A DNA stretch of 60,536 nucleotides from Chthoniobacterales bacterium (GCA_036522675.1 DATDFJ010000128.1:1-60536); one strand, 5' to 3'; positions 8,919 to 46,718 are shown, counted from the stretch's first letter. Numbers and translations are program-made. The notes: a model not told the origin generated them from the sequence alone.

Positions 8919-10005
8919 CCGAACACCGTTCAGAATCTCGTTTTTCGGCGGCGGCACCGATTATCCCGCCTGGTACCTGAAGCATGGCGGCGCGGTGCTT
9001 GCGACCACGATCGACAAATATTGCTACATCACGTGCCGCTACCTGCCGCCGTTTTTCGAGCACAAGTACTGCGTGATCTATTCGAAGATGGAATATTGCC
9101 AAAGGCTCGATGAAATCGCGCATCCCGCCGTGCGCGAGGTGCTTCGCTATTTGAAAGAAAACCGCGGCGTCGAAATCCACCACGACGGCGATATCCCGGC
9201 CCGGAGCGGCATGGGATCGAGCTCCGCCTTTACCGTCGGGCTGCTGAATGCGCTCAACGCCCTCCAGGGCCGGATGGTGACCAAGCATGACCTGGCTACC
9301 GAAAGCATCCATCTCGAGCAGGACATTTTGCGCGAGACCGTCGGCTCGCAGGATCAGGTGCTCGCGGCCTACGGCGGTTTTAACCACATTCAGTTTCTTT
9401 CCAACGGGGAAATTTCCATCCGTCCCATGACTGTTGCGCCCGAGACAGTCGCCGGTCTGAATGCGCACCTGATGTTGTTTTATACCGGCATCAAGCGCAC
9501 CGCCTCGACCGTCGCCGAGACTTATGTGAACGGCATCGACGACAAAGAGCCGCAGATGCGGGTCATCCAAGATCTCGTCGACGAGAGCATTTCGATTCTG
9601 AACTCCGGGCGGAATATCGCCGACTTCGGCGCGCTCTTGCACCAGGCCTGGGAAGCCAAGCGGAGCCTGAGCGCCACGATTTCCAATTCTGACGTCGACG
9701 ACATATACCGCGAAGCCAGGTTGGCCGGTGCGGTTGGCGGAAAGCTGATCGGCGCAGGCGGCGGCGGCTTCCTGCTGCTTTTCGCTCCTCCCGAGCGGCA
9801 ATCCGCGGTGCGGGCCCGGCTCGACAAGCTGCTCCATGTGCCGTTCAACTTCGAGTTCGCCGGCAGCCAAATCATCTTTTTCGACCGCGAACAGGACTAT
9901 TCCGCCGCGGAAAAGGCCCGCAGCGATCAGAATCTGCGACCGTTTCGCGAGCTCACCGGCCAAGAGCCCGCCTGGGCGAAACGCGAGGCCGGAGGTAAAT
10001 CGTGA
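8908..10005 (+). CDS. hddA: GHMP-family sugar kinase, HddA-like (D-glycero-alpha-D-manno-heptose-7-phosphate kinase type)
   Basis: [23 protein letters not shown] N-terminus and the GHMP motif [12 protein letters not shown]. The ATG at 8908 has GGGAGG upstream and overlaps the gmhA stop by 11 nt. Confidence 0.7.
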   Translation: [365 protein letters not shown]

Positions 10006-10934
10006 ACATTCTCGTAACCGGCGGCGCGGGCTATATCGGTTCCGTTCTGGTGCCGCTTCTGCTTCGAGAAGGCCACCAGGTTACGGTGCTGGATAATTTT
10101 CTGTACCGCCAGCCTTCTCTGCTCGACTGCTGTTTTGAAAAGCGCCTCACCGTGATTCGCGGAGACGCTAGAGACCGCGATCTCGTCGGCAAACTGGCGG
10201 CGAAGGCCGACGCGGTGCTGCCCCTGGCGTGCTTGACGGGCGCCCCGATCTGCGCGCGCGACCCGTGGGCCGCGAAAGGAGTCAATTACGAAGCGGTGAA
10301 AATGCTGGCGGAGGGATTGAGCGCCGATCAACGGCTTATTTTTCCCTCGACCAACAGCGGCTACGGCATCGGCCAGGAAGGCATCCACTGCGACGAGAAC
10401 ACGCCGCTCAAGCCCGTGTCGCTCTACGGACGCCTGAAAGTCGACGTCGAAGCTCTTTTGCTCGATACGGGACGTTTCGTGACTTTCCGCTTCGCCACGC
10501 TTTTCGGCGTCAGCCCGCGCATGCGCGTGGACCTGCTGGTCAACGACTTCACCTATCGTGCGGTGACCGACCGGTGTGTCGTGCTGTTCGAAGCGCATTT
10601 CAAGCGCAACTACCTTCACGTGCGCGACGCGGCACGCGCCTTCATTCATGTTTTGGAAAACTATGACGCGATGAAGGGCCGGCCCTACAACGTCGGTCTG
10701 AGCGACGCCAACCTCAGCAAGCAGGAGCTCTGCGAGGTCATCAAGCGGCATGTGCCGGATTTCTATTTTACCGAGGCGAAGCTCGGCGAAGATCCCGACA
10801 AACGCAATTACATCGTGAGCAACGGGCGCATCGAGTCCACGGGATTTCTCCCTTGCACGAGTCTCGACGACGGTATCGACGAACTCATCAGGGGGTATCA
10901 AATTCTTCGCCAGAATCAATTTGCAAACGTCTGA
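10002..10934 (+). CDS. NAD-dependent epimerase/dehydratase (extended SDR)
   Basis: MNILVTGGAGYIGSVLV Rossmann motif and a YGRLK (YxxxK) catalytic motif. A GTGA overlap joins it to the upstream stop. Confidence 0.8.
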   Translation: MNILVTGGAGYIGSVLVPLLLREGHQVTVLDNFLYRQPSLLDCCFEKRLTVIRGDARDRDLVGKLAAKADAVLPLACLTGAPICARDPWAAKGVNYEAVKMLAEGLSADQRLIFPSTNSGYGIGQEGIHCDENTPLKPVSLYGRLKVDVEALLLDTGRFVTFRFATLFGVSPRMRVDLLVNDFTYRAVTDRCVVLFEAHFKRNYLHVRDAARAFIHVLENYDAMKGRPYNVGLSDANLSKQELCEVIKRHVPDFYFTEAKLGEDPDKRNYIVSNGRIESTGFLPCTSLDDGIDELIRGYQILRQNQFANV

Positions 10935-10971
10935 CTACGGGCGCAGCAACTTTATCGAAAAGGAGTTTTTT

Positions 10972-11967
10972 ATGAAAAAGATCTTAGTAACGGGCGCTGG
11001 CGGCTTTATCGGCAGTTATCTCGTGACCTATCTCAAGCGTCAAGGACATTGGGTTCGCGGGGTGGATATCAAACATCCGGAGTTCAGCCGGACGGAAGCC
11101 GACGAGTTCACGCTGCTCGACCTCAGGCGCTGGGAAAATTGCCTGCGCGCGACTTCGGGCGTCGACGAGGTTTACGCGCTCGCGGCGGATATGGGGGGCA
11201 TGGGTTTCATTTCTTGCAACCATGCGCAGATTCTTCACAACAATGCGCTGATTAACTTTCACACGCTGGAAGCCGCGCGGGCGAATTGCGTGAAGCGGTA
11301 TCTCTACGCCTCGTCGGCGTGTATTTATCCGGAGTACAAGCAGCTCGAGACGGACGTCGCTCCGTTAAAGGAGGAGGACGCTTACCCCGCCGCGCCACAG
11401 GACGCCTACGGGTGGGAGAAGCTCATCACCGAGCGTTTGTGCACGCATTACCGTGAAGACTACGGCATCGAGACGCGCATCGTGCGCTTCCATAACATCT
11501 TCGGACCGCTGGGCACATGGGAAGGAGGCCGCGAAAAGGCGCCCGCGGCGATGTGCCGCAAGATCGCCGTCGCCAAGCTGACCGGCAATCATGAGATCGA
11601 AATCTGGGGCGACGGCGCGCAGACGCGGTCGTTTTGCTACGTCGACGACTGCGTGAAAGGAATCCACAAGCTGATGGAGTCCGACTACCATGAGCCGTTG
11701 AATCTGGGTCAGGATCGCATGGTCAGCATCGACCAGCTCGCGGATATTATCGGCGACATCGCGAGCGTGCGGATCAGTAAAAAGCACGTGCCCGGACCGC
11801 AGGGCGTTCGCGGGCGAAATTCTGACAACACACGCCTGAGGGAGATCCTGCGTTGGGAACCGGAAATAACTTTGGAAGAAGGCTTGGCCCGAACCTATAC
11901 CTGGATTGAAAAGCAGGTCGCAGCCGCCGCCGCGGCCCAGCCGGTCGCTGCCAACTCCGCCGGCTAA
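10972..11967 (+). CDS. GDP-mannose 3,5-epimerase-like SDR
   Basis: LAADMGGMGFISCNHAQILHNNALINFHTLEAAR...YASSACIYPEYKQLET...PQDAYGWEKL...FHNIFGPLGTWEGGREKAPAAMCRK closely tracks the conserved blocks of GDP-mannose 3,5-epimerases. AAGGAG lies upstream of the ATG at 10972. Confidence 0.75.
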   Translation: MKKILVTGAGGFIGSYLVTYLKRQGHWVRGVDIKHPEFSRTEADEFTLLDLRRWENCLRATSGVDEVYALAADMGGMGFISCNHAQILHNNALINFHTLEAARANCVKRYLYASSACIYPEYKQLETDVAPLKEEDAYPAAPQDAYGWEKLITERLCTHYREDYGIETRIVRFHNIFGPLGTWEGGREKAPAAMCRKIAVAKLTGNHEIEIWGDGAQTRSFCYVDDCVKGIHKLMESDYHEPLNLGQDRMVSIDQLADIIGDIASVRISKKHVPGPQGVRGRNSDNTRLREILRWEPEITLEEGLARTYTWIEKQVAAAAAAQPVAANSAG

Positions 11968-12024
11968 TTCCAACGCGCATCGATCTGTTTCGGTTCTGGT
12001 GCGAATCCCCCGCAATGGAACCAT

Positions 12025-15000
12025 ATGCACTACAAACACACGCTGTTTGAGGATTTAGTAAAAGTCGCGACCGCAGTCACCCGGTTTAAGCAGCCGTGGA
12101 AATATCTGACGGCGGCATGCCTATCATGCGCGATGATCGCCCTAGTCGCGCCTCATGTCGCGGCGCAACCGAACGTTGTCGGCAAATGGCAGACGCTTTC
12201 CGGCTCGATGCCGATCAATCCCATCCATGTGGGATTGATGCGCAACGGCAAAGTCTTGATCCTGGCAGGCTCCGGCAACGACGATGCTGAGTTCGATGAG
12301 AAAATTTCCCAATTGGCCATCTGGGATCCTGTGGCAGATCCTCAGGGCAGCGCCATCACGGTGCAAAACGTCGGCTGGGACCTCTTCTGCAACGGTATGG
12401 CCTTCTTGCCGGACGGCCGGGCGCTCATTATCGGCGGCACTGATCAGTACGATCCGTTTCACGGCTCGCCGCGAGCGGCCGTATTCGATCCGCTAAAGCA
12501 GCAGTTCATCCAGGTCCAGAGTATGGCGCACGGTCGCTGGTACGGCACGGTGACCGCCTTAGGGAACGGGCAGTTGATGACATTCTCCGGCTTCACGCAG
12601 AACGATAGTGAGATCAACAAAAATGTCGAGAAGTACGAGGTGGCTTTCGGCTGGCATCCCGAAGTGCAAGCGCCGTGGACGCCGCGACTCTATCCCTGGC
12701 TACACCTCTTGCCCAGCGGCTTGATTTTTTATTCCGGTTATACGCCGGTCTCGTGGATATTCGATCCGGTGGCTCAGACCTGGGCTCTAGGCCCGACTAC
12801 CATATATAACGGCATGCGCACATACGGCAGCTCTGTTTTGCTGCCGTTGTTGCCGCCGAACTATACGCCGCGCGTGATGATCACGGGCGGCGCGCCCATC
12901 TACGATGTCAGTCCGACAGCTCCAGCTACGGCGAGCACGGAGATCATTGACCTCTCGCAACCGAGCCCGTCTTGGACTGCAGGCCCCAACATGTCGGCGC
13001 CCCGTGTCGAGATGAACTCGGTTCTTCTACCTAATGGCAAGGTGCTTCTCTTAGGAGGGTCCAGGATCGACGAGCAGGGCGACGCGCCCGATCCGATCAC
13101 GGGTATTCCTCCGGGCCACCTGGCTGATCTCTACGATCCGGTGTCGAACACGATATCGTCCGCCGGCCACAACAATTTCGACCGGCTCTATCACTCCAAC
13201 GGCATGCTGATGCCGGACGGGACCGTGTGGGTTAGCGGCTCCAACCCAGCCCGCGGCGTGTACGAGTCGCACATGGAGGTCTATTCTCCGCGGTATCTAT
13301 TTAATGCAGACGGCACGCCCGCCGCGCGTCCGCAGATCGTGAGCGCCCCCTCGATCGTCGGCTACGGCGATGCGCCGTTCACCGTTCAAGTCGATGCTCC
13401 GAACACTATTCAGTCTGTGGTGCTAATGCGGAACGGTGCCCCGACGCACGGCTTCGATATGGAGCAGCGGATGATCGGGCTCACTTTCAACTTGGTGAAC
13501 GGCGTCTTGAAAGTCACGCCGCCGCCGAGCGTCAACAGCGTTCCGTCGGGCGCGAACATCGCGCCGCCCGGATATTACATGCTCTTCGTCGTGAACAACG
13601 CCGGCGTGCCTTCCGTGGCGTCCTTCATCCAGCTCACGCTGACCGGCGCGAACCATACGCCGCCTGTTGGAATCCTCAACGCCACACCGGCGCCCGATCA
13701 GAACGGTGTCATTAATATACAAACAGGCGATTCCGTGACCTTTACCGGCAACAGCGTCGGCGGCGCCGCGACCCAGTATTCCTGGATCTTTCCCGAAGTA
13801 GTGCCGGATTCCGACCCGCTCACTTCGCAAAAAGATCCCGGCCCCATCACTTTTCCAATCGCCGGCACTTACACCGTCTCGCTCACAGTAAAAGACAGCG
13901 CGGGCGCGACGGATCCCAGTCCTCCGACTGTGACCGTGACGGTAGTGAATCCAGTCCCTGTGACGCTCAACCTCTCGAAAACCGGCGCGGGCGGCGGGAC
14001 GGTGACGAGCAATCCCGCGGGAATCGACTGCGGCGCGACGTGCAGCGGCCAGTTCTTCAGCAATATCAAGGTGACGCTCACCGCCACGCCGGACGGCCCG
14101 GGCTCGACCTTCAACGGATGGAGTGGAGGGTGGTGCAGCGGCAAGGGCGTGTGCGTACCAACGCTTGACTTCGATCCGACCACGGTCACGGCGAACTTTA
14201 TCGTTACTCCGGAGAAGTTGACGGTTGTGAAAACCGGTGCGGGCAGCGGCACGGTGACGAGCGATTTGTCTGGAATCACTTGCGGAGCGACCTGCTCGAA
14301 AAACTATAACTATGGCGATTCGGTGACGCTCACGGCTACGTCGGCCGCTCCGGGTTCGACGTTCACCGGCTGGAGCGGCGGCGGGTGCAGCGGCACGGGG
14401 GCATGCACGGTTACGCTCACTAGTCCCATCACTGTGACGGCGAATTTTGCACCCATAACGATCAATCTGAATATCTCGAAGAGCGGCACTGGCGGCGGTA
14501 CGGTCACGAGCAACCCCGCCGGCATCGACTGCGGCGCGACCTGTGCGGCGATTTATGGTTATGGTACACCCGTCACGTTGACCGCGGTTCCCGACGCCGG
14601 CTCCGCGTTCAACGGCTGGAGCGGGGGATGCACAGGGACTGGAGATTGCGCGCCGGATTTGACTGCCGACGCGAGCGTCACGGCGGACTTTATTTCGGTT
14701 CCTCCCCTCACTCTCGTGCCTTCTCCGCTTCCCGACGCGGAAGTCGGACTGGATTACAGCTTGACGCTGGTGAACGGCGGCTTACCGCCGTACACCATCA
14801 CGCCGATCAAGGGCGTCCTTCCGGCAGGGATGAGCATCGACCCGGACACCGGGACTCTAAAAGGCAAACCGGATATCGGAAAAGCCACGAGCTTCACAAT
14901 TAAAGTCGCCTATCAGTTCGGGCCCTCCATGACGAGCACTTATAAGCTTGTCGTCCGCAAGCCACTGCTCGTCGCAACCACAGCCCTCAAGGCCGGAACG

Positions 15001-15225
15001 AATAATAAAGCTTACAGCGCGAAGCTCAAAGCCACCGGAGGAAAAGCGCCGTATGCCTGGAGTGAACTGACGGGAAATCTTGTCGGCACCGGGTTAATGC
15101 TAGATTCGGCCACCGGCGCGATCACGGGGATGCCCGCGGCGGGAGCATCCCTTAATTTAACTTTTAAGGTGAGGGATGCACTAGGCGGTGAACAACAGGA
15201 AGATTTTTTGCTCACGATCAATTAG
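12025..15225 (+). CDS. Secreted copper-radical oxidase (galactose/glyoxal oxidase, AA5-like, with DUF1929-type C-domain) fused to a PKD domain, three InlB-B-repeat-like modules and two putative Ig (He_PIG-like) domains
   Basis: All catalytic motifs are present: DLFCNGMAFLPDGRALIIGG (crosslink Cys), HGRWYGT (crosslink Tyr), RLYHSNGMLMPDG (axial Tyr-His) and APTHGFDMEQR (His). The N-terminus is hydrophobic and ends in an AAQP cleavage-like site. Confidence 0.8.
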   Translation: MHYKHTLFEDLVKVATAVTRFKQPWKYLTAACLSCAMIALVAPHVAAQPNVVGKWQTLSGSMPINPIHVGLMRNGKVLILAGSGNDDAEFDEKISQLAIWDPVADPQGSAITVQNVGWDLFCNGMAFLPDGRALIIGGTDQYDPFHGSPRAAVFDPLKQQFIQVQSMAHGRWYGTVTALGNGQLMTFSGFTQNDSEINKNVEKYEVAFGWHPEVQAPWTPRLYPWLHLLPSGLIFYSGYTPVSWIFDPVAQTWALGPTTIYNGMRTYGSSVLLPLLPPNYTPRVMITGGAPIYDVSPTAPATASTEIIDLSQPSPSWTAGPNMSAPRVEMNSVLLPNGKVLLLGGSRIDEQGDAPDPITGIPPGHLADLYDPVSNTISSAGHNNFDRLYHSNGMLMPDGTVWVSGSNPARGVYESHMEVYSPRYLFNADGTPAARPQIVSAPSIVGYGDAPFTVQVDAPNTIQSVVLMRNGAPTHGFDMEQRMIGLTFNLVNGVLKVTPPPSVNSVPSGANIAPPGYYMLFVVNNAGVPSVASFIQLTLTGANHTPPVGILNATPAPDQNGVINIQTGDSVTFTGNSVGGAATQYSWIFPEVVPDSDPLTSQKDPGPITFPIAGTYTVSLTVKDSAGATDPSPPTVTVTVVNPVPVTLNLSKTGAGGGTVTSNPAGIDCGATCSGQFFSNIKVTLTATPDGPGSTFNGWSGGWCSGKGVCVPTLDFDPTTVTANFIVTPEKLTVVKTGAGSGTVTSDLSGITCGATCSKNYNYGDSVTLTATSAAPGSTFTGWSGGGCSGTGACTVTLTSPITVTANFAPITINLNISKSGTGGGTVTSNPAGIDCGATCAAIYGYGTPVTLTAVPDAGSAFNGWSGGCTGTGDCAPDLTADASVTADFISVPPLTLVPSPLPDAEVGLDYSLTLVNGGLPPYTITPIKGVLPAGMSIDPDTGTLKGKPDIGKATSFTIKVAYQFGPSMTSTYKLVVRKPLLVATTALKAGTNNKAYSAKLKATGGKAPYAWSELTGNLVGTGLMLDSATGAITGMPAAGASLNLTFKVRDALGGEQQEDFLLTIN
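13960..14691 (+). repeat. Three tandem ~80-aa InlB-B-repeat-like modules (coding repeats) inside the oxidase gene
   Basis: The units are 13960-14199, 14212-14448 and 14455-14691. Each has the pattern GxGGGTVTSxPxGIxCGxTC...VTLTAxPxxGSxFxGWSGGxCxGxGxC...VTAxF. Units 1 and 3 are also visibly similar at DNA level. Confidence 0.8.
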
Positions 15226-15274
15226 CAATCGGACGACTTGAGAAACAACCGCCGTCACGAGGGCTATTTTATCG

Positions 15275-16450
15275 ATGGGCAAGAAATGGGTTCTGTTTGC
15301 AGCGCTGATGGTTGCGCTGCTCGACAACTGGAATGCGATTTCAGACGATAGCCCCACCTTCGGCGATCCGCTTCCTACTCTGAGCAGCGAGGAGCTTGAT
15401 CTTTTCTCCCAGGGCAAAGCTGAATTCGCGCGCATCTTGACTCTAGCGGAGGGGGTGGGGCCGGTGTTCAACGGCCGATCATGCGTCGCCTGCCATGCGA
15501 TTCCCGTGCCTGGGGGAGACAGCGGCGTCGTCGAGCACCGATTCGCCACGGTCACAAACGGGGCGTTCGATCCTATGATCTCTTTTGGAGGACCGACACT
15601 TCAAACCGAAGGCATCGGTCATGTTAGCTCATGCACTTTCTCCGGTGAGACGATTCCTCCGGAGGCCACGATTATCGCCGAACGCAAAACAACGCCGCTC
15701 TTCGGCTTAGGGCTCGTGGAGAGCGTGCCGGACGGTGTATTTCGAAAAATTGCCGATCGCCAGCAAAGAAAAACTCCTGATACCGCCGGACGGCCCAACG
15801 CGGTAACGGACGTTACGACGGGGCTTACAGCGGTGGGCAAATTCGGATGGAAGGCTCAAGTTCCTTCATTGCTCCATTTTTCAGCCGAGGCATTCCATAC
15901 CGAAATGGGAATTACGAATCCTTTTTTCCCCGATGATTTATGCCCGCAGGGAAACTGCGCCGCGTTGGCGGCGTGCGATCCGGCCGCCGACCCCGAGGAC
16001 GACGGTTCGAATGTCCAGGCGGTGGCAGACTTTATGAGGTTTCTCGCCCCGCCGTCGCGGCCAACCCGGACTTCGCAAACCCGTTTCGGCGAGTCGGTTT
16101 TTATGAAGATCGGCTGCGGCGACTGTCATTTGCCAGCGCTGAAAACCGGGCGCAGTCCGGTGAAGGCGCTGAATCGTGTGAAGTTTCATCCGTTTTCGGA
16201 TTTTCTCATCCATGATATGGGAAATCTGGGCGACGGTTTCGAACAGGGCGACGCCTCAGGAAGCGAAATGCGCACGGCACCGCTCTGGGGGCTTGGCAAG
16301 CGCACGCGTTTTCTGCACGACGGGTCGGCGTCGACCATGGAAGACGCCGTCCTCGCCCACGACGGACAAGGCGCGGCGTCCAGGGACCGCTTTGCGGCGC
16401 TTGAGTCCAAAGATTTACAGAATCTTCTCGCCTTTCTCGCCTCGCTGTAG
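15275..16450 (+). CDS. DUF1111-type di-haem protein (putative cytochrome c peroxidase/oxidoreductase), secreted
   Basis: Two CxxCH haem-binding motifs (CVACH, CGDCH). Signal-like N-terminus MGKKWVLFAALMVALL. The size and spacing fit DUF1111. Confidence 0.65.
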   Translation: MGKKWVLFAALMVALLDNWNAISDDSPTFGDPLPTLSSEELDLFSQGKAEFARILTLAEGVGPVFNGRSCVACHAIPVPGGDSGVVEHRFATVTNGAFDPMISFGGPTLQTEGIGHVSSCTFSGETIPPEATIIAERKTTPLFGLGLVESVPDGVFRKIADRQQRKTPDTAGRPNAVTDVTTGLTAVGKFGWKAQVPSLLHFSAEAFHTEMGITNPFFPDDLCPQGNCAALAACDPAADPEDDGSNVQAVADFMRFLAPPSRPTRTSQTRFGESVFMKIGCGDCHLPALKTGRSPVKALNRVKFHPFSDFLIHDMGNLGDGFEQGDASGSEMRTAPLWGLGKRTRFLHDGSASTMEDAVLAHDGQGAASRDRFAALESKDLQNLLAFLASL

Positions 16451-16480
16451 ATGCCGGCCGTACGCGGCCCTTGTGTTGCA

Positions 16481-17710
16481 ATGAAACTCCTGGTCATTAC
16501 CGGCGCTTTTCCGCCGATGTCCGCAGGCGAGGCGGATCATGTGTTCCACTTGTGCCGCCGTCTGGCCGACCGCGGAGTCGACGTTCACGTGGTGACGAGC
16601 CGGGGCAACAAAGTCAGCGACTCGTTGCCTTTCAAGGTTTATCCTGTCATACGCGGCTGGTCCTGGCCTGATTTGTTTCGTCTTGTACGGCTTTTCAAGC
16701 GTATTTCACCGGATGCGGTGCTGCTCAAATACATCGGTTGGATCTACAACGATCATCCGATGGTCACATTTATGCCGACCGTATCCAAGTCGCTCAAACG
16801 ATCCGCCGTATTCGTCACCCAATTCGCTAACGCGGAGGGGGCGCCGCCGGAGAAAATGTCGTTGGGGACCCGGCTCTTGCGCAACATGATAGCGCGCAAG
16901 GCCGGCCTAGCCTGTGTCGACGATCATTATGGAACGCTGCTGCGCGACAGCGATCGTTTAATTGTGCTCAGTAATTTGCACCGCACATGGCTCGCAGGGC
17001 GGTTTTCACCTGTGCGCGATAAGAGCGTTCTGATTCCGCCGCCACCCATCATGATGATGGCGCAAGAGCCCAACGGCGTCGGCCGCGAGCGGGTCAGAAA
17101 AAAATTAGGCGTCGGGTCAGATGAATTCTTGCTCGTCTACTTCGGCTATGTTTATCCACGCAAGGGCGTCGAGACCCTGCTCCGAGCTTTCCAAATCGTG
17201 GTGCGCAAGCAACGGAACGTGAGGTTGTTGATTGTCGGAGGCTTTATCGCGCGGGATTTTCCCGACTACGCGACCTACCGTAATAGCGTTACAGCGCTTC
17301 CCAAGGAGCTCGGCATCGAAGACAAGGTCATCTGGTTTGGAGGTTACGATTGGAACAGCGACGAGGCCTCGCAAAATTTGCGGGCCGCCGATGCGGCTGT
17401 AATCCCCATGGACTATGGAGTGCAGATGAACAACAGCGCTTTTGCGGCGCTTGTAGCGCACGGTTTGCCCGTGATCGCGACGCAAGGCGCGGATCTCGAG
17501 GAGCAGTTCCTCAACGAAAATAACGTTCTTTTATGTCCTCCAAGAGATCCTGTGGCCATGGCTGCGTCAATCGAAATGCTGATCGGAGACCCCGCGCTTG
17601 CGCGCCGCCTCAAGGCCGGCGCTTCGGAACTTGCTGAGAAATGGTTCTCGTGGGACAAGGCGATTGATCGCACGATCAGTGCCCTGAACGGCGGAGAGCG
17701 GTTTTCATGA
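16481..17710 (+). CDS. Glycosyltransferase, GT-B fold (GT4-like)
   Basis: MKLLVITGAFPPMSAGEADHV N-terminus and a C-terminal group-1 GT block (AADAAVIPMDYGVQMNNSAFAALVAHGLPVIATQG). An alternative ATG at 16451 directly abuts the upstream stop. Confidence 0.75.
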   Translation: MKLLVITGAFPPMSAGEADHVFHLCRRLADRGVDVHVVTSRGNKVSDSLPFKVYPVIRGWSWPDLFRLVRLFKRISPDAVLLKYIGWIYNDHPMVTFMPTVSKSLKRSAVFVTQFANAEGAPPEKMSLGTRLLRNMIARKAGLACVDDHYGTLLRDSDRLIVLSNLHRTWLAGRFSPVRDKSVLIPPPPIMMMAQEPNGVGRERVRKKLGVGSDEFLLVYFGYVYPRKGVETLLRAFQIVVRKQRNVRLLIVGGFIARDFPDYATYRNSVTALPKELGIEDKVIWFGGYDWNSDEASQNLRAADAAVIPMDYGVQMNNSAFAALVAHGLPVIATQGADLEEQFLNENNVLLCPPRDPVAMAASIEMLIGDPALARRLKAGASELAEKWFSWDKAIDRTISALNGGERFS

Positions 17711-19065
17711 AGATCTTGGTCGTATCGAATCTTTATCCCCCACACTGCATCGGTGGATACGAGATTCGCTGCTCGCTTGTTGCGCAAGGCCTTCGAGCGG
17801 CGGGGCACGACGTCAGGATTTTGACGAGCCGCTACGGCTTGCCATCCGACCGCCTATCGCGCGAAAACATCGACGGCGTTCAGGTAGAACGATTGCTCGG
17901 TCAATATCATCATAGCAGCCGTCCGCCGACGGGATGGCCTTATTTCCTCGCCCGCGTCAGACCGCAGATCCGCGATGCGCATTGTTTCATTCGAACCCTC
18001 GAAGAGTTCAAACCCGATCTGGTGAGTTGGTGGGCGATCAGCGGCTTAACTCCGGCGCTGCTCTCAATTCCGAGGCTCCGTGGAATCCCGGATGTTTTTT
18101 TCGTCGAAGACGACTGGCTCGTCGAGGAGCGGGGGCGCGGTGAAGATCGCAAAAGACCGCAATGGGCCGGTTTGTGGAAAAGAGACGATAAGCCGTGGTA
18201 CTGGCGCCCGGCGCTTGTTGGGCTTATGGAAAAATGGCGCGCACGCCTGCTCAAGCAGGGCATTGAGACGAGCGCCGCGCCGTTTGTTCCAAGCCATGTG
18301 TGCTTTGTCAGTGAGTTTCTCCGGGATCATTATCTCGCGAGCGGATTTACTTTTCCCTCGACGGAAGTGCTTTACGGCGGCGTTCCGCTGGAAAAGTTTT
18401 TCTTTAAACGGCAAGCCGCCGCGGCCGACCGACAATCCTTGCGATTGCTTTACGCCGGCTTTATCAGCAGGGACCGAGGCCTTACTACGGTTCTCAGGGC
18501 GCTCAGCGCCCTCTCGCCGGAACGGAAATCTCGCACAACGCTGACCATAGTTGGGGAGTATAACGACGCCCAATATTATCGCGAGGTCTGCGATGAGATT
18601 TTGCGCTTGCGCCTCTCGCCGCAGGTCTGCTTCGTCGGAAAAAAGAATTATGAGGAAATGCCGGGGATTTATCGCGCGCACGACGTTCTCGTAGCGCCGT
18701 CGGCGCGACGTGAAGGTTTGCCGCTATCAATGACGGAGGCGATGCTTTCGGGCTGCGCCGTCGTCACGACCGGAAGCGGCGGAGCCGCGGAAATCGCTCG
18801 CCGCGCCGATCTTCCGCTATTTGAGAAAGACGACGCGGCGGCACTGACTCGAATTCTGGAACAACTTATCGACAGTCGCCACGAGCTGGAGCGAATCGCC
18901 GTGCACGGGCAGGACGTCGCGGTGCGCGAGTATTCTTCCGCTCGAATGATCGAGCGTTTTTGCCGCCTTGTCGAAAACTTGCATGAAACACGAAAGCCGA
19001 AGAATCTTTCGGCGGCCAGTGCCCGGCGACGCAAACTCGGCCATATCGCGCAGGATCGGTTGTGA
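17707..19065 (+). CDS. Glycosyltransferase family 4
   Basis: MKILVVSNLYPPHCIGGYEIRC and the E-x7-E block REGLPLSMTEAMLSGCAVVTTGSGGAAEI. An ATGA overlap joins it to the upstream gene. Confidence 0.85.
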   Translation: MKILVVSNLYPPHCIGGYEIRCSLVAQGLRAAGHDVRILTSRYGLPSDRLSRENIDGVQVERLLGQYHHSSRPPTGWPYFLARVRPQIRDAHCFIRTLEEFKPDLVSWWAISGLTPALLSIPRLRGIPDVFFVEDDWLVEERGRGEDRKRPQWAGLWKRDDKPWYWRPALVGLMEKWRARLLKQGIETSAAPFVPSHVCFVSEFLRDHYLASGFTFPSTEVLYGGVPLEKFFFKRQAAAADRQSLRLLYAGFISRDRGLTTVLRALSALSPERKSRTTLTIVGEYNDAQYYREVCDEILRLRLSPQVCFVGKKNYEEMPGIYRAHDVLVAPSARREGLPLSMTEAMLSGCAVVTTGSGGAAEIARRADLPLFEKDDAAALTRILEQLIDSRHELERIAVHGQDVAVREYSSARMIERFCRLVENLHETRKPKNLSAASARRRKLGHIAQDRL

Positions 19066-20378
19066 AGATCCTCAACATAACGCCGATGTATTATCCATTT
19101 GCCAGGGGCGGAGAGCGCCACGCGACGGTAGTGTCGGAGCGGCTTGCCGCACGGGGTCATGAAGTGACGGTCGTGACGACCGACGCGATGAGTGAGACGG
19201 ACATGCAGCAAGGCAGGGACGCCGGTCTGCCGCGGAGCGAAACCATTCATGGCGTGCATATCCTGCGCGTCCCCGCCTCCGATGGCGCTCTCCCCGGGAT
19301 AATCAAATTCGGTTTACGCCTCAAGGGCGGGTACCGGTCGCTCAATTATCTTTTTACTCCGGCCGGACTGGAGGTCCTCGCCCGACCGCCGCGTCACTTG
19401 GGCTTTCTTAACGCGGTCCTGCGCACGAAAGCCGATCTGATAGTCGCGTGGAATTGGTATTGGCCGCCCGCGTACCAAGCATTCTTGGCCAAAGCGTTCA
19501 AACGGTGCCGATTGGTCGGCATACCCTTCTTTCACCCCGCCGACGGATGGGTGCAAGGGCCGCTTTACGACCGCATGATCGCAGCTTGCGACGCGCTTGT
19601 TGTCAACACCGCTTACGAGAAGGATTTTGTCCTCGACCGCGTGGGTGGCAGTAATATCTTGGTCGCCGGTCCGGGAATCGAGCCGGCCTTTTTCGATTGC
19701 AGCGACGGCTCAGGGTTCCGCCGGCGCTACGGCATCGAGGGCGCGCCGCTGGTCGGATACATGGGAACGCTCAGCAAGCATAAAAAAGTCGATAAGATCG
19801 TAGAGGCGATGCCGGCGGTATGGCGCTCGAACGGCGACGCGCGCCTTTTGCTCGCGGGTTTTCCCGATGATCGCTTTCCCCGATTGAAAGAAGTCATCGA
19901 GTTCCTGCCGCCGGAACAACGCCGGAAGGTCTTGCTGCTGCCGGATTTGCCCGAAAGCGAAAAAGCGAACTTCTACGCGGCCCTCGATGTGTTTGTCATG
20001 CCTTCGGTGGGAGAGTCGTTCGGCATTTCCTACCTCGAGGCCTGGATGTGCGGCAAGCCGGTGATTGGGGCGCGAATCGGTTCGACCTGCTGCGTGATCG
20101 ACGAGGGCGAGGACGGCCTGCTCGTGAACCCCGATGATGTCTCGGAGATTTCCCGGACGGTCGTCGAGCTGCTGGCCGATCCCCAGCGGCGTGAGCGCAT
20201 GGGCGCGCGTGGACGGGACAAAACGCTAAAGCAGTTCACCTGGGGTACTCTTTGCGACGGCATCGAGGACTTTTTTCTAAAGGTCGCGATGGCGCCCGCG
20301 TCTTCGATCTCCAAGCGGCATAGAAAATCTTCGCCGCTCGCCGCCCTGGAGAATTCCGGCGCCGCTCAGAGGGATTGA
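19062..20378 (+). CDS. Glycosyltransferase family 4 (tandem paralog A)
   Basis: GESFGISYLEAWMCGKPVIGARIGSTCCVIDEGEDGLLV. GTGA overlap start. Confidence 0.85.
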   Translation: MKILNITPMYYPFARGGERHATVVSERLAARGHEVTVVTTDAMSETDMQQGRDAGLPRSETIHGVHILRVPASDGALPGIIKFGLRLKGGYRSLNYLFTPAGLEVLARPPRHLGFLNAVLRTKADLIVAWNWYWPPAYQAFLAKAFKRCRLVGIPFFHPADGWVQGPLYDRMIAACDALVVNTAYEKDFVLDRVGGSNILVAGPGIEPAFFDCSDGSGFRRRYGIEGAPLVGYMGTLSKHKKVDKIVEAMPAVWRSNGDARLLLAGFPDDRFPRLKEVIEFLPPEQRRKVLLLPDLPESEKANFYAALDVFVMPSVGESFGISYLEAWMCGKPVIGARIGSTCCVIDEGEDGLLVNPDDVSEISRTVVELLADPQRRERMGARGRDKTLKQFTWGTLCDGIEDFFLKVAMAPASSISKRHRKSSPLAALENSGAAQRD

Positions 20379-20421
20379 CGCGCGGCGGACTCGCGCGCAG
20401 CCGCGGCAGACGCGGAACGTT

Positions 20422-21690
20422 ATGAAAATCATCCACGTCGCTCCCATGTACACGCCGGCTGTCGGAGGCGCTGAGGATCACATGCGCGCCATCTCCGAGC
20501 GGCTCGCGGCGCGTGGCCACGAAGTTATTGTATTGACGGCGGATGTGAGTTTCCATGAAGATCTCTGGCCCGGCCGGCCTGGCGGCCTGCCGGAAAAGGA
20601 GACCATCAACGGAGTGCGCGTGGTTCGGATGGCGCCCGGTGGAGGCTGCGTGAGCGCGATGTTCGAAGCGTGGAAGCGGATGCGCGGCGGCTATCGTTCT
20701 CTGCGCCTCCTCTTTGGCGAGGACGGGTTAGAGTTTTTGACCCGCAGACCATTCCTCACATCGCTGATTCCGACCTTGTTGCGCACTCGTGCGGATGTCG
20801 TTACTGCGGCAAACTGGTATTGGCCGCCGGTATACCATGCTTATCTTGCGAAAAAGCTGAAACGCTTTACTCTCGTCGGGATCCCGCTCTTTCATACAGC
20901 CGAGGCCTGGTGTAATCAGGAGATCTATCGACGCATGCTCGGCGCCTGCGATGGGGTTATCGTCAATACAGAGCACGAAGGCAATTTCGTGCGAGAACGT
21001 GCTGCTACTCGTGTCATGGTAGGCGGCGTCGGTGTCGATCCGGAGCTGTTTAGGGCGCGCGATGGTTCGGTGATCCGCCGCCGGTACGGCTTGGAAAATC
21101 GCCTCATCGTAGGTTATGTCGGCAGACAAGCGGCCAACAAAGGGGCTGCCGAGCTCCTGCGCGCAATGGCGGATGTCTGGAGGTGGAACCCCGAAGTGCG
21201 GCTTGTGCTTGCGGGTCCCCGTGCTGTGCGCGATAAGGAGATGGAGCAGACGCTTTCGCGCCTTACGCCATTCGAGAACGAACGGATAGTGAGGATCAAC
21301 GAGTTTGCTCAAACCGACAAGGCTTCAATATTCGACGCCTTTGATGTTTTCGTTCTTCCCTCGACATCCGAATCCTTTGGCATCTCCTACCTCGAGGCAT
21401 GGCTATGTAAAAAGCCGGTGGTTGGGGCCAACATTGGGCCGACGAGGTGCGTGATCGACGACCGGTCTGATGGGCTTCTGGTCGATCCCGGCCAGCCGTC
21501 CGATATCGGGCGCGCGATCATCGAATTGCTTTCCAATTCTGCCATGCGGCGAGCAATGGGAGAGACAGGCTACGCGAAAACTGTCTCGCGGCATACCTGG
21601 GACCAGGTTACCGACAAGATCGAGCGACTGTATTTTTCCTTAGCTGCGAACAATCGAAACCGCCAGGCATTCGCAGCGGTGGAGTCGTAA
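20422..21690 (+). CDS. Glycosyltransferase family 4 (tandem paralog B)
   Basis: SESFGISYLEAWLCKKPVVGANIGPTRCVIDDRSDGLLV. It is collinear with the 19062-20378 product along its whole length. Confidence 0.85.
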   Translation: MKIIHVAPMYTPAVGGAEDHMRAISERLAARGHEVIVLTADVSFHEDLWPGRPGGLPEKETINGVRVVRMAPGGGCVSAMFEAWKRMRGGYRSLRLLFGEDGLEFLTRRPFLTSLIPTLLRTRADVVTAANWYWPPVYHAYLAKKLKRFTLVGIPLFHTAEAWCNQEIYRRMLGACDGVIVNTEHEGNFVRERAATRVMVGGVGVDPELFRARDGSVIRRRYGLENRLIVGYVGRQAANKGAAELLRAMADVWRWNPEVRLVLAGPRAVRDKEMEQTLSRLTPFENERIVRINEFAQTDKASIFDAFDVFVLPSTSESFGISYLEAWLCKKPVVGANIGPTRCVIDDRSDGLLVDPGQPSDIGRAIIELLSNSAMRRAMGETGYAKTVSRHTWDQVTDKIERLYFSLAANNRNRQAFAAVES

Positions 21691-21703
21691 TCGGGCGGCG
21701 GTC

Positions 21704-22897
21704 ATGCATGCGGGCGCACAGGTAGCGGTGCTCGATCACACCGCGTCGGCGCTAGGTGGGGCGCAGTTGGTGGTGTCTCGCATGGTTGCGCTTCTGTCAC
21801 AAAACTACGATGTCGAGCTGATACACAATGGCGGTGCAGGCTATTTGGCGACACTGACGTCCGCTTTTTCCGCGAACTTGGAAAGAATCCGGGAGAAGAG
21901 GATTTCTGCAATGCGGACGAGTTTCAGTCTACCCGGCGCTGCATCGCTGCTGAGGCCGGAACGACTTGATGGCATCGGTGCGAACCGATGGTACGATCTT
22001 TTTGTATATTCCGGACACGGCGTCCCGCCGCGTTCTTGTGGCAAAAAAGGAATCATCTACTGTCACTTTCCTTTCGAATCCGCGCCGGTGAATGCGCGCG
22101 ATAAAGCGGGCAACCCGAAACTCCGAGGGCCGGTACCGTGGATCAAAAATGCCGCCTATCGTTGGGACTGGAAAAGCCGCATGGCTGGATATCAGAAGAT
22201 CTTCGCCAATTCGTATTTTACGGCGGAATGGATAGACCGTCGATGGCAAATGCCCGCAGAGGTGTTGTATCCTCCCGTTGATCCGGTTCCCTCGACGAGA
22301 GGAAAAAAAAATCTTATCGTGACGCTCGGTAGATTTACCGGAGGTCCCAGAAGCAAGAATCAGCTCGCCCAAGTACAGGCATTCCGCGATTTTTGTGGTT
22401 CAGCGCGCGAGCCTTGGACGCTGCGGATCATCGGCTCATGCGGCGAATCCCTCACAGACAGGGAGTATCTGGACCGGCTACGTAATAGCATCGATGGACT
22501 ACCCATCGAGCTGCTGGTTAACGTCGAACGTAGCGTAACAGTCCAATCTCTCGCAGAGGCGCGGTTGTTTTGGCATACGGCCGGCCTAGGCGTTGATGAG
22601 AAGGAACGCCCTGAGTATGCCGAACATTTCGGCATCGCCGTAGTGGAGGCCATGCGCGCCGGCTGCGTGCCAGTTGCCGTCAACTCAGGGGGACTGCGGG
22701 AAATCATCGAACATGACAAAAACGGATTTCTTATATTCGACCTGAAGAGTATGGCCCAAACGAGTGCAAAGCTCGCTGACTGCGAGGAAAAACTCGCGCT
22801 CATGGGAGACGCCGCTCGCCGTCGCAGCGCTATTTTTGACGGCGAGCGATTTGACCGACGTTTTCGAGCCGCGGTGTCAGAGTGCCTTGCTAGCTGA
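21704..22897 (+). CDS. Glycosyltransferase family 4
   Basis: AEHFGIAVVEAMRAGCVPVAVNSGGLREIIEHDKNGFLI. The gene contains an A9 homopolymer at 22303-22311. Confidence 0.8.
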   Translation: MHAGAQVAVLDHTASALGGAQLVVSRMVALLSQNYDVELIHNGGAGYLATLTSAFSANLERIREKRISAMRTSFSLPGAASLLRPERLDGIGANRWYDLFVYSGHGVPPRSCGKKGIIYCHFPFESAPVNARDKAGNPKLRGPVPWIKNAAYRWDWKSRMAGYQKIFANSYFTAEWIDRRWQMPAEVLYPPVDPVPSTRGKKNLIVTLGRFTGGPRSKNQLAQVQAFRDFCGSAREPWTLRIIGSCGESLTDREYLDRLRNSIDGLPIELLVNVERSVTVQSLAEARLFWHTAGLGVDEKERPEYAEHFGIAVVEAMRAGCVPVAVNSGGLREIIEHDKNGFLIFDLKSMAQTSAKLADCEEKLALMGDAARRRSAIFDGERFDRRFRAAVSECLAS

Positions 22898-22942
22898 ACT
22901 ACAAGCCGGCTTGATGCAAAAAAACGCAGGACATACGGTGTT

Positions 22943-25342
22943 ATGAAGGGTACGAAGAACGTCCCATTGCTTCCTGAGATTGGCGTTTTAGCGCTGGTGC
23001 CCGATGATTGGGATGTATCGTGGCAGCCGCGGCATCACGTGCTCAGCCGTTTATCGCGCTATTTCCACGTTGCTTGGGTGAATCCGGCTCCTGAATGGCG
23101 CCAACTCGGGAAAGCCTGGTACAAGTCGTCGCTGCCTAAGCTCGGCGTAACGGCCGACTTCCCTGGATTCCTGATCTATCGTTCTCATGTTTTTCCGAAA
23201 TTGTATCGACCGGAATGGGTCGCGACGCGATTTTACGAGCAGCGTCTGAAGAACGCGCGAAAAATGCTTTTAGCAAGGGGCTGCAAAAAAATTATTCTTT
23301 ATGTCTGGCGACCAGAGTTCGAGCCCGCGCTTCGGATGATACCGCATGATGCTAGCTGCTACCATATCGACGACGAATATTCGTTTTCGGAAATCGAAGT
23401 TGCCCTCGATCCGGCTGAAATTCGCCTGATGAAGGAAGTCGATCAGGTCTTCATCCATTCGCCCGGTCTCCTGGAGAAAAAAGGCGCGATCAACCCGCGG
23501 ACGGTTTTTGTTCCGAACGGTTGCGACTATCAGGCATATTCTCAGCTGCAGCCCGAGCCGCCCGACCTTGCGCGCATTCCGCACCCGCGGATCGGCTACA
23601 CCGGCCGCATCAAGCGCCAGCTCGATTGGGGTCTGATTACAGGACTCGCGACCAAACACCCCCAGTGGTCATTCGTCTTCGTCGGTCCTGTAACTCAGGA
23701 TCCCGAGGTGGCGGAGGCGGTCCGGACACTATCCAATCGTCCGAATGTCCATTTCCTGGGCTACAAGTCCACCGAGCAGCTAGCCGCGTACCCGCAGCAC
23801 TTCGACGTCTGCATCATGCCGTACCGGTTAAACGATTACACGCGGTATATCTATCCGCTGAAGCTCCACGAATACCTCGCAAGCGGGCGGCCGGCCGTCG
23901 GCTCGCCGGTCCTTTCTCTCATGAAATTTGGACACCTCGTCCGGCTGGCACGGACGGCCGACGAGTGGTCGAGCGCGATCCAGGATTGTCTGAATCCTGC
24001 GTCCACGACGACGGTTACGGAACGCCAATCCGTTGCACAACGTCACGACTGGGACAGCCTCGTCAAGATTATCGCACTCACAATATGTGAGCGGCTGGGA
24101 GATCAATGGCTTCAAAAGATTCAGACGGAGGCGTCCGTTGAAAGCTCCGGCTTACGACCGCCCGACACGGCGCTCCAAATGTCGGTGCCCCTGAACGGGA
24201 CCGCCGGGACTGCGCAGGCGCGCGTCGCGCTGCAGCGCTGCGATCGATTCGTGGCGCGCACGATGAATTGGCTCTACGACCATTTGCGGTTCGTGACCGG
24301 CTATGCTCCGGTGATTCTGTGCGACGCGCTGCAAAATCGCGAGGAATTCCCGGAGCTCGACGCGCGTTGTTTCAATCGAGAAAGTCTGCCGCGTCAAATC
24401 TGGCGCGGTATAGCCGGAAATCGCCCCACGCCTTACGACGCCTGGCAATTGGGCAGGCTTCACCCCCAGATTCTCCACTCTCATTTCGGCTATGTCGCAA
24501 CGCAGGACATCAAGCTGCAGCGGAGCCTCGATATCCCCTGGGTCGTGAGCTTCTATGGCGCCGACGTCTATGAGATCGATTTTGCCGAAAGAGACCGGAC
24601 GTATTCCCAAGTGTTTCAGCGCGCGGATCGGGTTCTGGCCTTGGGACCGTCGATGGCGGCGCGGCTCGAGCTTCTCGGATGCCCGCGGGAGCGCATCGCG
24701 ATTCACCCGCTCGGCGTCGATGTCGAAAATCTGCCGCAGAAGCCGCGGGTGCTCGATTCCGGCGCGCCTTTGAAGATCCTTTTCGCGGGAACGTTCCGCG
24801 AAAAGAAGGGCATTCCCTACGTCGTCGAGGCGATCTCGCTGGTCAAGCGCGCAGGGATTTCCGTCGAGCTTTATCTGGTGGCGGGAGAGATGGGCAAGGC
24901 GGGCGAGCTGGAGACGAAACAGAAGGTATTCGAGCAGATCCGGCGGCTCGATCTCGAGCGCAATGTCATCTACAAGCCGCTCATGCCGTTCCGCGATCTG
25001 ATACGGCTTGCGCTCGACAGTCATATTTTTGTCGCTCCGAGCGTGACCGCCGCCGACGGCGACGCCGAAGGGACGCCGTTCGTTCTCCAACAAATGATGT
25101 CTACGGCGATGCCCGTTATTGCCACGGTGCATTCCGACATTCCGTATCTTTTCGGCGAGTATGAAAGCCGGCTTGTTGCCGAGCGGGACGCGGAGGCGAT
25201 CGCTGCACGGCTGCAGGAGTATGCGATGCGCCCGCAGATGCTCGTCGAGGACGGTCGCGCGCTCCGTGAGCGTATCCGATCGGCTTTCAACGTCAAGGAA
25301 TGTGCCGAGCGGCTGGGCGGAATTTATGATCAACTCTACTGA
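22943..25342 (+). CDS. Two-module glycosyltransferase (N-terminal TuaH-like GT-B module plus C-terminal GT4 module)
   Basis: 799 aa. The first module includes GYTGRIKRQLDWGLI...YPLKLHEYLASGRPAVGSPV. The second includes FAGTFREKKGIPYV...AEGTPFVLQQMMSTAMPVIATVHSDIPYLF. Confidence 0.75.
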   Translation: MKGTKNVPLLPEIGVLALVPDDWDVSWQPRHHVLSRLSRYFHVAWVNPAPEWRQLGKAWYKSSLPKLGVTADFPGFLIYRSHVFPKLYRPEWVATRFYEQRLKNARKMLLARGCKKIILYVWRPEFEPALRMIPHDASCYHIDDEYSFSEIEVALDPAEIRLMKEVDQVFIHSPGLLEKKGAINPRTVFVPNGCDYQAYSQLQPEPPDLARIPHPRIGYTGRIKRQLDWGLITGLATKHPQWSFVFVGPVTQDPEVAEAVRTLSNRPNVHFLGYKSTEQLAAYPQHFDVCIMPYRLNDYTRYIYPLKLHEYLASGRPAVGSPVLSLMKFGHLVRLARTADEWSSAIQDCLNPASTTTVTERQSVAQRHDWDSLVKIIALTICERLGDQWLQKIQTEASVESSGLRPPDTALQMSVPLNGTAGTAQARVALQRCDRFVARTMNWLYDHLRFVTGYAPVILCDALQNREEFPELDARCFNRESLPRQIWRGIAGNRPTPYDAWQLGRLHPQILHSHFGYVATQDIKLQRSLDIPWVVSFYGADVYEIDFAERDRTYSQVFQRADRVLALGPSMAARLELLGCPRERIAIHPLGVDVENLPQKPRVLDSGAPLKILFAGTFREKKGIPYVVEAISLVKRAGISVELYLVAGEMGKAGELETKQKVFEQIRRLDLERNVIYKPLMPFRDLIRLALDSHIFVAPSVTAADGDAEGTPFVLQQMMSTAMPVIATVHSDIPYLFGEYESRLVAERDAEAIAARLQEYAMRPQMLVEDGRALRERIRSAFNVKECAERLGGIYDQLY

Positions 25343-25391
25343 TGATTCTTTGGAAACGCTCCACGCGGAGGTTTCCGGCTAATCTCGACCC

Positions 25392-26714: not shown

Positions 26715-26720
26715 ACACCC

Positions 26721-31796: not shown

Positions 31797-31805
31797 CATT
31801 TCTGC

Positions 31806-32351: not shown

Positions 32352-32359
32352 GGGAATTG

Positions 32360-33136: not shown

Positions 33137-33139
33137 TCG

Positions 33140-34147: not shown

Positions 34148-34168
34148 CGCACCGTTCAGATTCCGGGA

Positions 34169-35551: not shown

Positions 35552-35568
35552 GTTCCTTTGCATCGATC

Positions 35569-39440: not shown

Positions 39441-39470
39441 GTCCGTGAACGCGATGGCGGGAACAACATA

Positions 39471-41399: not shown

Positions 41400-41476
41400 G
41401 CACCAGCTCAAGCGAATTGCTTCGATGGCGATCTTCGGGCCATGAAAGCTTGTAGCCAACTTAGAAAGTAACGACG

Positions 41477-42649: not shown

Positions 42650-42711
42650 AGCGCCTACGGACGCCGCACAGCGCGCCCGAACCCAAGTCTTGTCATCTCC
42701 ACGAAGCTGAA

Positions 42712-43671: not shown

Positions 43672-43681
43672 AAGCCAAACT

Positions 43682-45526: not shown

Positions 45527-45530
45527 GCGA

Positions 45531-46706: not shown

Positions 46707-46718
46707 AAGCGAGGGATT

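Follow-up and report, generated by a model that had tools for sequence, protein, structure and literature searches.

Is the di-haem protein encoded directly behind a secreted copper-radical oxidase (CRO) the redox partner of that oxidase, or is it a neighbor without a functional tie? The question is raised by a tandem gene pair of a Chthoniobacterales bacterium (GCA_036522675.1 DATDFJ010000128.1:1-60536), whose 60,536-nt stretch of DNA we analyzed and refer to as the window. Here, the open reading frames (ORFs) of a CRO and of a DUF1111 family protein (DHOR) both lie mid-operon in a Wzx/Wzy exopolysaccharide (EPS) gene array:

12025..15225, + strand: secreted multidomain CRO, 1066 aa, with signal peptide, kelch propeller, GO-like E-set, PKD, three B-repeats and two He_PIG domains (Pfam, PDB matches, orthologue on contig L009, introduced below)
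15226..15274, + strand: 49-nt spacer between CRO and DHOR genes, with a GAGGG Shine-Dalgarno-like site and without a terminator-like hairpin (sequence scan)
15275..16450, + strand: secreted di-haem DUF1111/DHOR protein, 391 aa, predicted distant member of the fold shared by bacterial cytochrome c peroxidases (bCcPs) and MauG (Pfam, AlphaFold2 model, Foldseek, profile)

We tentatively favor a reading, to which we assign slightly less than an even chance, in which the DHOR would be a lineage-specific haem partner using the H2O2 of the oxidase and/or re-activating the oxidase. At the same time, the pairing looks like a local variant of a known oxidase-plus-peroxidase partnership and not like a general rule. 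The descriptive part of the initial annotation held throughout. Both ORFs, the 1066-aa length of the oxidase and the 49-nt gap were confirmed at 12025-15225 (+) and 15275-16450 (+), as were the complete set of galactose/glyoxal-oxidase catalytic motifs, the fusion of the oxidase to PKD, B-repeat and Ig-type modules, and the secreted DUF1111 protein with two CxxCH motifs encoded behind it. The pair, noted as standing beside glycan genes, sits inside the EPS operon.

The two genes look co-transcribed, because they are separated by only 49 nt containing a Shine-Dalgarno-like site and no terminator, and because the next gene, encoding a family 4 glycosyltransferase (GT4), abuts the DHOR stop (0-nt gap). 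A scan for sigma-70 promoters, which would miss sigma-54 promoters, gave matches no more frequent than in shuffled sequence and was set aside. CRO-DHOR fusion proteins were absent from the Pfam annotations of the best 120 matches per family.

A predicted intact oxidase with attachment-type modules

PDB matches spanned CRO residues 38-540. The best solved relative was Streptomyces GlxA (4unm, E 2.7e-52, phmmer against the PDB), while galactose oxidase 1gof matched with E 4.6e-31 and fungal galactose oxidases with ~1e-31. Pfam placed Glyoxal_oxid_N at aa 109-289 (PF07250, 38.3 bits against a cutoff of 37.5), together with Kelch matches, and GO-like_E_set/DUF1929 (PF09118) at aa 435-536 (E 4.7e-23). 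Alignment with GlxA assigned the catalytic residues as follows:

12388..12390, + strand: Cys122 (DLFCNGM), thioether cross-link Cys (GlxA chain index 91)
12538..12543, + strand: Trp172-Tyr173 (RWYGT), stacking Trp and equatorial cross-linked Tyr (index 258/259)
13189..13194, + strand: Tyr389-His390 (LYHS), axial Tyr and first His copper ligand (index 471/472)
13447..13449, + strand: His475 (PTHGFD), second His copper ligand, in the GO-like E-set domain (index 559)

All five active-site residues (C122, Y173, Y389, H390 and H475) aligned with their GlxA counterparts and were invariant in 25 relatives. At a constant offset of 30, the aligned sites correspond to Cys121, Trp288/Tyr289, Tyr501/His502 and His589 of GlxA, in the numbering of Chaplin et al. 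2015. C122 is the sole Cys of the mature catalytic domain; the remaining 12 fall into the B-repeats, four in each, a pattern to be expected of extracytoplasmic modules with disulfide bonds. With every sequence feature of the AA5-type galactose/glyoxal oxidase superfamily in place, we assign the CRO to this superfamily and predict a catalytically intact, active oxidase that would load copper.

GlxA orthology was considered and rejected. The CRO reached 258.4 bits, in two separate stretches, against an NF052501 equivalog cutoff of 800, and a GlxA insert of ~110 aa (chain residues 118-229) has no counterpart; at the insert site of the alignment, CRO aa 148 joins directly to aa 144 of the next aligned block. 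The catalytic part is followed by a modular tail, the B-repeats of which were recognized by Pfam as three Flg_new_2 domains:

13678..15222, + strand: non-catalytic C-terminal modules, comprising PKD (aa 552-639), three 4-Cys B-repeats (~aa 646-889) and two He_PIG domains (~aa 894-1066) (Pfam, Cys pattern)

This tail probably serves matrix or surface attachment.

A di-haem protein distantly related to bCcP and MauG

The downstream protein matched PF06537 (DHOR/DUF1111) with 169.4 bits at a Pfam cutoff of 22. This was the sole family reported, and PF03150 (CCP_MauG) gave no match at E <= 0.01. With 391 aa against the 499 positions of the PF06537 profile, it represents a short form; most of the best-scoring sequences among ~8,000 DUF1111 matches are likewise ~390 aa long. 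The AlphaFold2 model had a predicted local distance difference test (pLDDT) score of 85.9, with low pLDDT at the N-terminus, a signal-peptide-like hydrophobic helix. Two haem-binding motifs were found:

15482..15496, + strand: first haem-binding motif, CVACH, aa 70-74 (sequence; invariant)
16115..16129, + strand: second haem-binding motif, CGDCH, aa 281-285 (sequence; invariant)

Their C70/C73/H74 and C281/C284/H285 residues were invariant across 48 sequences, and the protein would be expected to load haem at these sites.

A single-sequence PDB search returned a cytochrome c555 haem-motif match only; the relation to bCcP and MauG emerged from profile and fold search. Foldseek matched the DHOR model to 3o5c, 2vhd, 3rn0, 2c1v and 5c2v_C with probability 1.0 and E-values of 4e-7 to 1e-5. 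The matched folds comprised di-haem cytochrome c peroxidases, MauG, BthA and the hydrazine synthase gamma subunit, and were distant, with TM-scores of 0.45-0.53 (normalized to target) and 12-16% identity. Complementarily, the DHOR family profile reached bCcPs by sequence (1iqc, E 1e-4; 3o5c, E 3e-3; also 1eb7), in an alignment covering the conserved P-L-(R/W)-x...FLHDG...L-E-x-A motif. The DHOR accordingly resembles the bCcP/MauG proteins (PF03150 superfamily) in its predicted fold, two c-type haems and C-terminal P-L-x-x...HDG motif, but differs from them by its low identity and missing PF03150 match. We place it, on profile and model evidence, in a distant, uncharacterized branch of the bCcP/MauG superfamily.

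A further difference concerns the Met-ligand position of bCcP 1iqc ('ETMG'), which aligns with the invariant His362 of the DHOR ('LAHDGQG'), so that the C-terminal haem may be bis-His. A haem of this kind would have a lower potential, which, together with the presence of a two-haem c-type protein beside an oxidase, is circumstantially in line with the DHOR being an electron acceptor or conduit that replaces O2 for the Cu(I)-CRO. The pair would then form an O2-sparing alcohol dehydrogenase wired to periplasmic cytochromes. We give this idea hardly any credence, as the Cu(I)/Tyr site would be oxidized only poorly by a haem of low potential and the fold class of the DHOR is that of peroxidases and MauG; moreover, we are not aware of any CRO that passes its electrons to a protein.

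The pair in orthologous operons

In the window, CRO and DHOR occupy a variable slot between two conserved genes:

10921..11967, + strand: SDR epimerase/dehydratase 'Epim2', conserved left border of the variable slot (domain scan, synteny)
16451..17710, + strand: PslF-like GT4 'GT4a', conserved right border, its start abutting the DHOR stop (domain scan, synteny)

Taking GT4a orthologues as anchors, we compared this Epim2|GT4a slot between relatives. Four lineages had neither gene (L170/L171, L172, L173 and probably L175, the latter counted with the caveat that its upstream SDR epimerase is only 39% identical to Epim2); L174, where the upstream gene is another GT4, was left out. Two lineages had the CRO only, namely L009 and the P0245 contig, whose 734-aa CRO with Flg_new_2 and He_PIG domains was read from the gene table. 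CRO followed by DHOR was found in the window, in L001 (99% identical) and in L169 (83% identity to the window for GT4a, 79% for the DHOR, 67% for the CRO tail). In L002 and L006, a protein with a tail 43-51% identical to the CRO tail precedes a DHOR (66%) and then a different GT4, so that the two genes stay together while their neighbors change.

Altogether, CRO followed by DHOR was present in the window and four contigs, with DHORs 66-99% identical, and a DHOR in the slot without a CRO protein upstream was never seen among the compared operons. The CRO is thus an optional accessory of the polysaccharide operon, and the DHOR a lineage-specific addition traveling with the CRO. In a neighbor-joining tree, the linked DHORs (window and P0002-P0005) formed one clade, apart from the stand-alone DHORs, which suggests specialization.

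Members of the stand-alone clade lie beside a PPIase gene and a 64-aa ORF. In related bacteria, this ORF always precedes the stand-alone DHOR (L003:9497-9691, L007:8841-9035, L008:1895-2089 and L004:786-980); it is absent from the window. Its sequence, MAQRVKIDCRKYPS..GCT....HAKIHHDHKD..., contains two Cys and a His-rich stretch and lacks a signal peptide, and the product resembles a small metal-binding protein.

The closest sequenced genome, the metagenome-assembled genome (MAG) GCA_964572145.1 (labeled uncultured Syntrophobacteraceae), contributes contig L009, which is syntenic with the window. It shows the order LamG/Big protein, nucleotidyltransferase, SIS, GHMP, Epim1, Epim2 (84% identical) and a 974-aa CRO orthologue, which has the same architecture as the window CRO, 58% identity (full-length pairwise) and every catalytic residue. 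A 430-nt spacer and then GT4a (75% identical), GT4b, GT4c and so forth follow, without a DHOR. The spacer (L009:12809-13237) is far longer than the other gaps of the operon; no decayed DHOR was detected in it at E <= 50. The DHOR of this MAG (P0009, 59% identical) lies on another contig, beside the PPIase gene and the conserved 64-aa ORF. Since the L009 CRO is intact without an adjacent DHOR, the DHOR is not required in cis, and it could act in trans in this MAG. The DHOR history may reflect a single gain, or loss in L009 and the P0245 lineage; the CRO tails of L009 (48% identity) and L002 (51%) stand at nearly the same distance from that of the window.

The same operon bears on the idea that the DHOR is a MauG- or MbnH-like enzyme that oxidizes residues of a partner with H2O2 or O2, either in the oxidase, as cofactor maturation, or in another secreted protein of the cluster. 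MauG structures were among the best fold matches, and DtpA, the peroxidase partner of GlxA, is reportedly required for GlxA maturation (PMC4736821). We nevertheless regard this explanation as very unlikely, given that the L009 orthologue keeps all catalytic residues without an adjacent DHOR and that the Met-ligand position of bCcPs aligns with His362. In addition, CROs are known to build their Tyr-Cys cross-link autocatalytically, from Cu and O2, which speaks against the need for a maturase.

Linkage at the scale of both families

To judge linkage more globally, we surveyed 80 CRO loci from different species (catalytic domains 48-58% identical, flanks of up to 10 kb per side, 1.45 Mb in total) and 80 metagenomic DUF1111 loci (relatives 47-61% identical, 629 kb). 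A DUF1111 gene lay within 10 kb in only two of the 80 CRO loci (L043 and L049), and none of the 80 DUF1111 loci contained a CRO or CRO tail. A general CRO-DUF1111 enrichment, the lack of which the initial annotation had named as refuting its coupling hypothesis, is therefore not borne out at this scale. In L043:9941-14404 and L049:674-5142, both from Terriglobia MAGs, a CRO of 1035 aa that contains four IPT/TIG domains and a DUF1111 protein of 433 aa are encoded convergently, ~54 nt apart; this pair may be a second, independent CRO-DUF1111 adjacency.

Glycosyltransferase (GT), Wzx or Wzy homologues were found near only 13 of the 80 related CRO loci, indicating that the wider CRO family is not tied to EPS genes. 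The uncharacterized CRO-PKD proteins of Acidobacteria and Terriglobia have catalytic domains 48-57% identical to that of the window CRO and often a PKD, but are mostly 700-800 aa long, lack the B-repeat/He_PIG tail and rarely lie near EPS or DUF1111 genes. This scarcity of glycan genes, as well as the absence of the CRO from several orthologous operons, would fit an oxidase that acts on environmental alcohols or sugars, in antagonism or in degradation of external polymers, with the DHOR protecting the producer. We consider such an external substrate improbable, because in at least three lineages the CRO gene lies in the middle of the operon, with sugar-nucleotide genes on one side and GT genes on the other, and because the L009 operon contains a second CRO, fused to LamG/Big modules.

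Several observations weigh against a dedicated CRO-DHOR partnership. Beyond the two survey counts, both linked survey loci are Terriglobia with one convergent arrangement and a DHOR only 31% identical to that of the window. The closest genome keeps an intact CRO orthologue in a syntenic operon without a DHOR. The linked cases are few and phylogenetically clustered, amounting to about three lineages of one clade, and four of the five contigs include no more of the upstream protein than its C-terminal tail. No DUF1111 protein is known to have been biochemically characterized, the only published context that we found being putative iron-uptake operons.

These points leave room for adjacency without coupling, in which the DHOR would be a general periplasmic di-haem oxidoreductase for peroxide or iron redox housekeeping, presumably like the stand-alone copies, with one paralogue inserted and carried along in a permissive slot of a long operon. 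The lack of enrichment across 160 loci, the syntenic CRO-only operon, the behavior of the Epim2|GT4a slot as a hotspot that varies between relatives and the abundance of ~390-aa DHORs on their own in related bacteria all fit this account. It does not readily explain why a DHOR in the slot only ever stood directly after a CRO protein, why the pair persists where DHOR identity is as low as 66% and also before a different GT4, or why the linked DHORs form a separate clade, and the tight operon spacing likewise speaks against a chance passenger. We think it possible but rather unlikely. A functional tie is favored by the nested pattern of neither gene, CRO only and both genes, by the survival of the pair where DHOR identity falls to 66% and where the downstream neighbor differs, by the separate DHOR clade and by the operon spacing.

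For the oxidase/peroxidase couple put forward in the initial annotation, the outcome is mixed. The complete catalytic site of the oxidase, the predicted bCcP/MauG fold, the apparent co-transcription and the retention of the pair in relatives (DHOR 66-79% identical) agree with it; the lack of family-wide linkage, the CRO-only operon of the closest genome and the lineages missing both genes do not.

A proposed partnership and its precedents

In the partnership that we tentatively favor, the PKD, B-repeat and He_PIG modules of the CRO would probably keep it attached to the polymer or to the cell surface, where it would oxidize primary alcohols (or aldehydes) of the glycan or of a nearby substrate and release H2O2. 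In the window lineage, a specialized paralogue of the local DUF1111 family would have been added directly 3' of the CRO. The peroxidatic haem of this DHOR would react with the CRO-made H2O2, thereby removing peroxide in the periplasm or matrix, and/or the DHOR would re-oxidize inactive Cu(II)-Tyr CRO to the active Cu(II)-Tyr radical, as in DtpA/GlxA and CorPerox/CorAlcOx. Of the possible mechanisms, this one, already documented for oxidases of the kind, requires the fewest assumptions. H2O2 consumption, the role initially proposed, is thus only one of two documented partner roles, the other being oxidative activation of the CRO. Both the peroxidase chemistry of the DHOR and its physical or redox coupling to the CRO are presumed. 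The operon position and the attachment-type modules make the polysaccharide a plausible CRO substrate, and from the same context the pair might oxidize or cross-link the EPS. The fullest version of this scenario appears possible but rather unlikely to us: a dedicated DUF1111 clade serving as the natural redox partner, both H2O2 sink and radical-state activator, of a matrix-anchored CRO in a Gram-negative EPS operon, with the pair oxidizing or cross-linking the secreted glycan.

The initial annotation was not aware of a description of the pairing. The concept of pairing a CRO with a haem peroxidase is known, both from GlxA-DtpA (PMC4736821) and from adjacent fungal genes (PMC9770985); DUF1111 in the partner role is new, and we found no paper linking DUF1111 to a CRO.

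As in the window, the S. lividans GlxA-DtpA system, with its CslA glycan synthase, features a secreted bacterial CRO encoded with glycan-synthesis genes. There, the secreted haem peroxidase DtpA reacts with H2O2 from GlxA to give compound I, and the maturation of GlxA depends on it (PMC4736821); use of the H2O2 of the oxidase is also what we propose for the DHOR. In contrast to GlxA, the window CRO lacks the ~110-aa insert, carries PKD, B-repeat and He_PIG modules and is encoded in a GT4-rich Wzx/Wzy operon instead of beside a CslA-type processive GT2 synthase. DtpA is a Tat-exported b-type DyP, whereas the DHOR is a c-type di-haem DUF1111 protein with a Sec-type signal; its gene adjoins that of the CRO, whereas dtpA is unlinked to glxA.

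In Colletotrichum, a peroxidase gene adjacent to the AlcOx gene encodes the natural AlcOx activator, which converts the inactive Cu(II) into the Cu(II)-radical form (PMC9770985), and the adjacent peroxidase of Magnaporthe likewise activates AlcOx (PMC12951238). These Perox-AlcOx pairs, composed of an AA5_2 oxidase and a class II haem peroxidase, share with the window that a secreted CRO and a secreted haem protein are encoded side by side, and are characterized by co-regulated genes, a CRO-dedicated peroxidase clade and activation by one-electron oxidation (PMC9770985, PMC12951238). They differ in being eukaryotic and in having genes arranged head to head; their class II peroxidase contains a single haem, their substrates are long-chain plant alcohols, and they function in host penetration. 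The window pair is bacterial and stands in tandem within an EPS operon, and the fold of its di-haem protein is unrelated.

DUF1111 itself has been described as a putative di-haem peroxidase, encoded in putative iron-uptake operons with imelysin, EfeO-like and DUF1513 proteins (PMC3143127; bioRxiv 10.1101/072470). The window DHOR resembles these proteins in its PF06537 match, two CxxCH motifs and predicted periplasmic location, but is short and encoded beside an oxidase and glycan genes. Pfam scans of the window proteins revealed no imelysin, EfeO-like, DUF1513, Sco-type copper chaperone or DyP genes.

Soil bacteria contain thousands of CROs, yet hardly any bacterial CRO has been studied in genera other than Streptomyces, and DUF1111 is a very large family without a tested function, for which the proposed role, if true, would be the first biochemical one. 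With an H2O2-producing enzyme directly 5' of a DUF1111 gene and with the operons of relatives as natural controls (neither gene, oxidase only, both), DUF1111 function becomes testable with two recombinant proteins. The locus lends itself well to experiments on this uncharacterized family; the support for the coupling is narrow and solely genomic. Should the coupling be true, it would extend the oxidase/peroxidase tandem principle to Gram-negative polysaccharide biogenesis and provide a bacterial activator for CRO biocatalysis; as a dedicated partnership, it would also mean that such tandems arose independently at least three times, with DyP in actinobacteria, class II peroxidase in fungi and DUF1111 here. 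Should it be false, the case illustrates that two neatly adjacent genes may owe their position to a local accident of narrow range.

The surrounding operon

The pair is embedded in a long array of polysaccharide genes:

3084..48068, + strand: co-directional Wzx/Wzy-type EPS operon, ~45 kb (ORF layout and domain scans)
25392-26714, + strand: Wzx flippase (Pfam-type scans)
46719-48068, + strand: Wzy-like protein (Pfam-type scans)

Intergenic distances within this + strand array (~3084-48068) are short or negative. According to domain scans, the genes 5' of the oxidase encode a nucleotidyltransferase, an SIS isomerase, a GHMP kinase and two SDR epimerases, as well as a TauD-type dioxygenase, a carbamoyltransferase and a GDSL esterase. 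The directly 3' part of the operon comprises six GT4 genes, the Wzx flippase and an AsnB-like amidotransferase, followed further 3' by additional GT2 and GT4 genes, methyltransferases and a second amidotransferase; a second carbamoyltransferase and the Wzy-like protein form the 3' end. Overall, at least ten GT4 and three GT2 glycosyltransferases are encoded 3' of the pair.

The TauD-type dioxygenase, two NodU-like carbamoyltransferases and two AsnB-like amidotransferases (3084-3983, 4960-6747, 26721-28616, 39471-41399 and 43682-45526) point to a heavily decorated polymer. One of the amidotransferases scored 598 bits against the XrtA/PEP-CTERM amidotransferase model, under its cutoff of 817, and no exosortase was seen in the window. 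Two large operon proteins (35569-38232 and 29458-31014, both +) gave weak PcRGLX-like and GH127-like matches and may be glycan-trimming or lyase-type enzymes.

At the left edge, the window starts within a gene for a LamG/Big/GH114-associated protein (1-2988, +), the frame of which is open from base 1. Its homologue in L009 (L009:158-4921) has 1587 aa and an N-terminal CRO domain (Glyoxal_oxid_N and GO-like_E_set). Judging by this homologue, another oxidase domain is probably encoded immediately to the left of the window, and one EPS operon would then contain two CROs.

Convergent to the operon end, a gene for a protein with a weak polysaccharide-lyase-14 match (48106-49416, -) adjoins one for a 616-aa protein (49341-51191, -) with three Flg_new_2 B-repeats, the module type also present in the oxidase tail; the B-repeats may be a matrix-binding module common to the oxidase and this protein. 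Finally, a PAS-domain protein and then a sigma-54-dependent response regulator are encoded to the right of the EPS cluster (55178-57844, +) and are candidates for its regulation.

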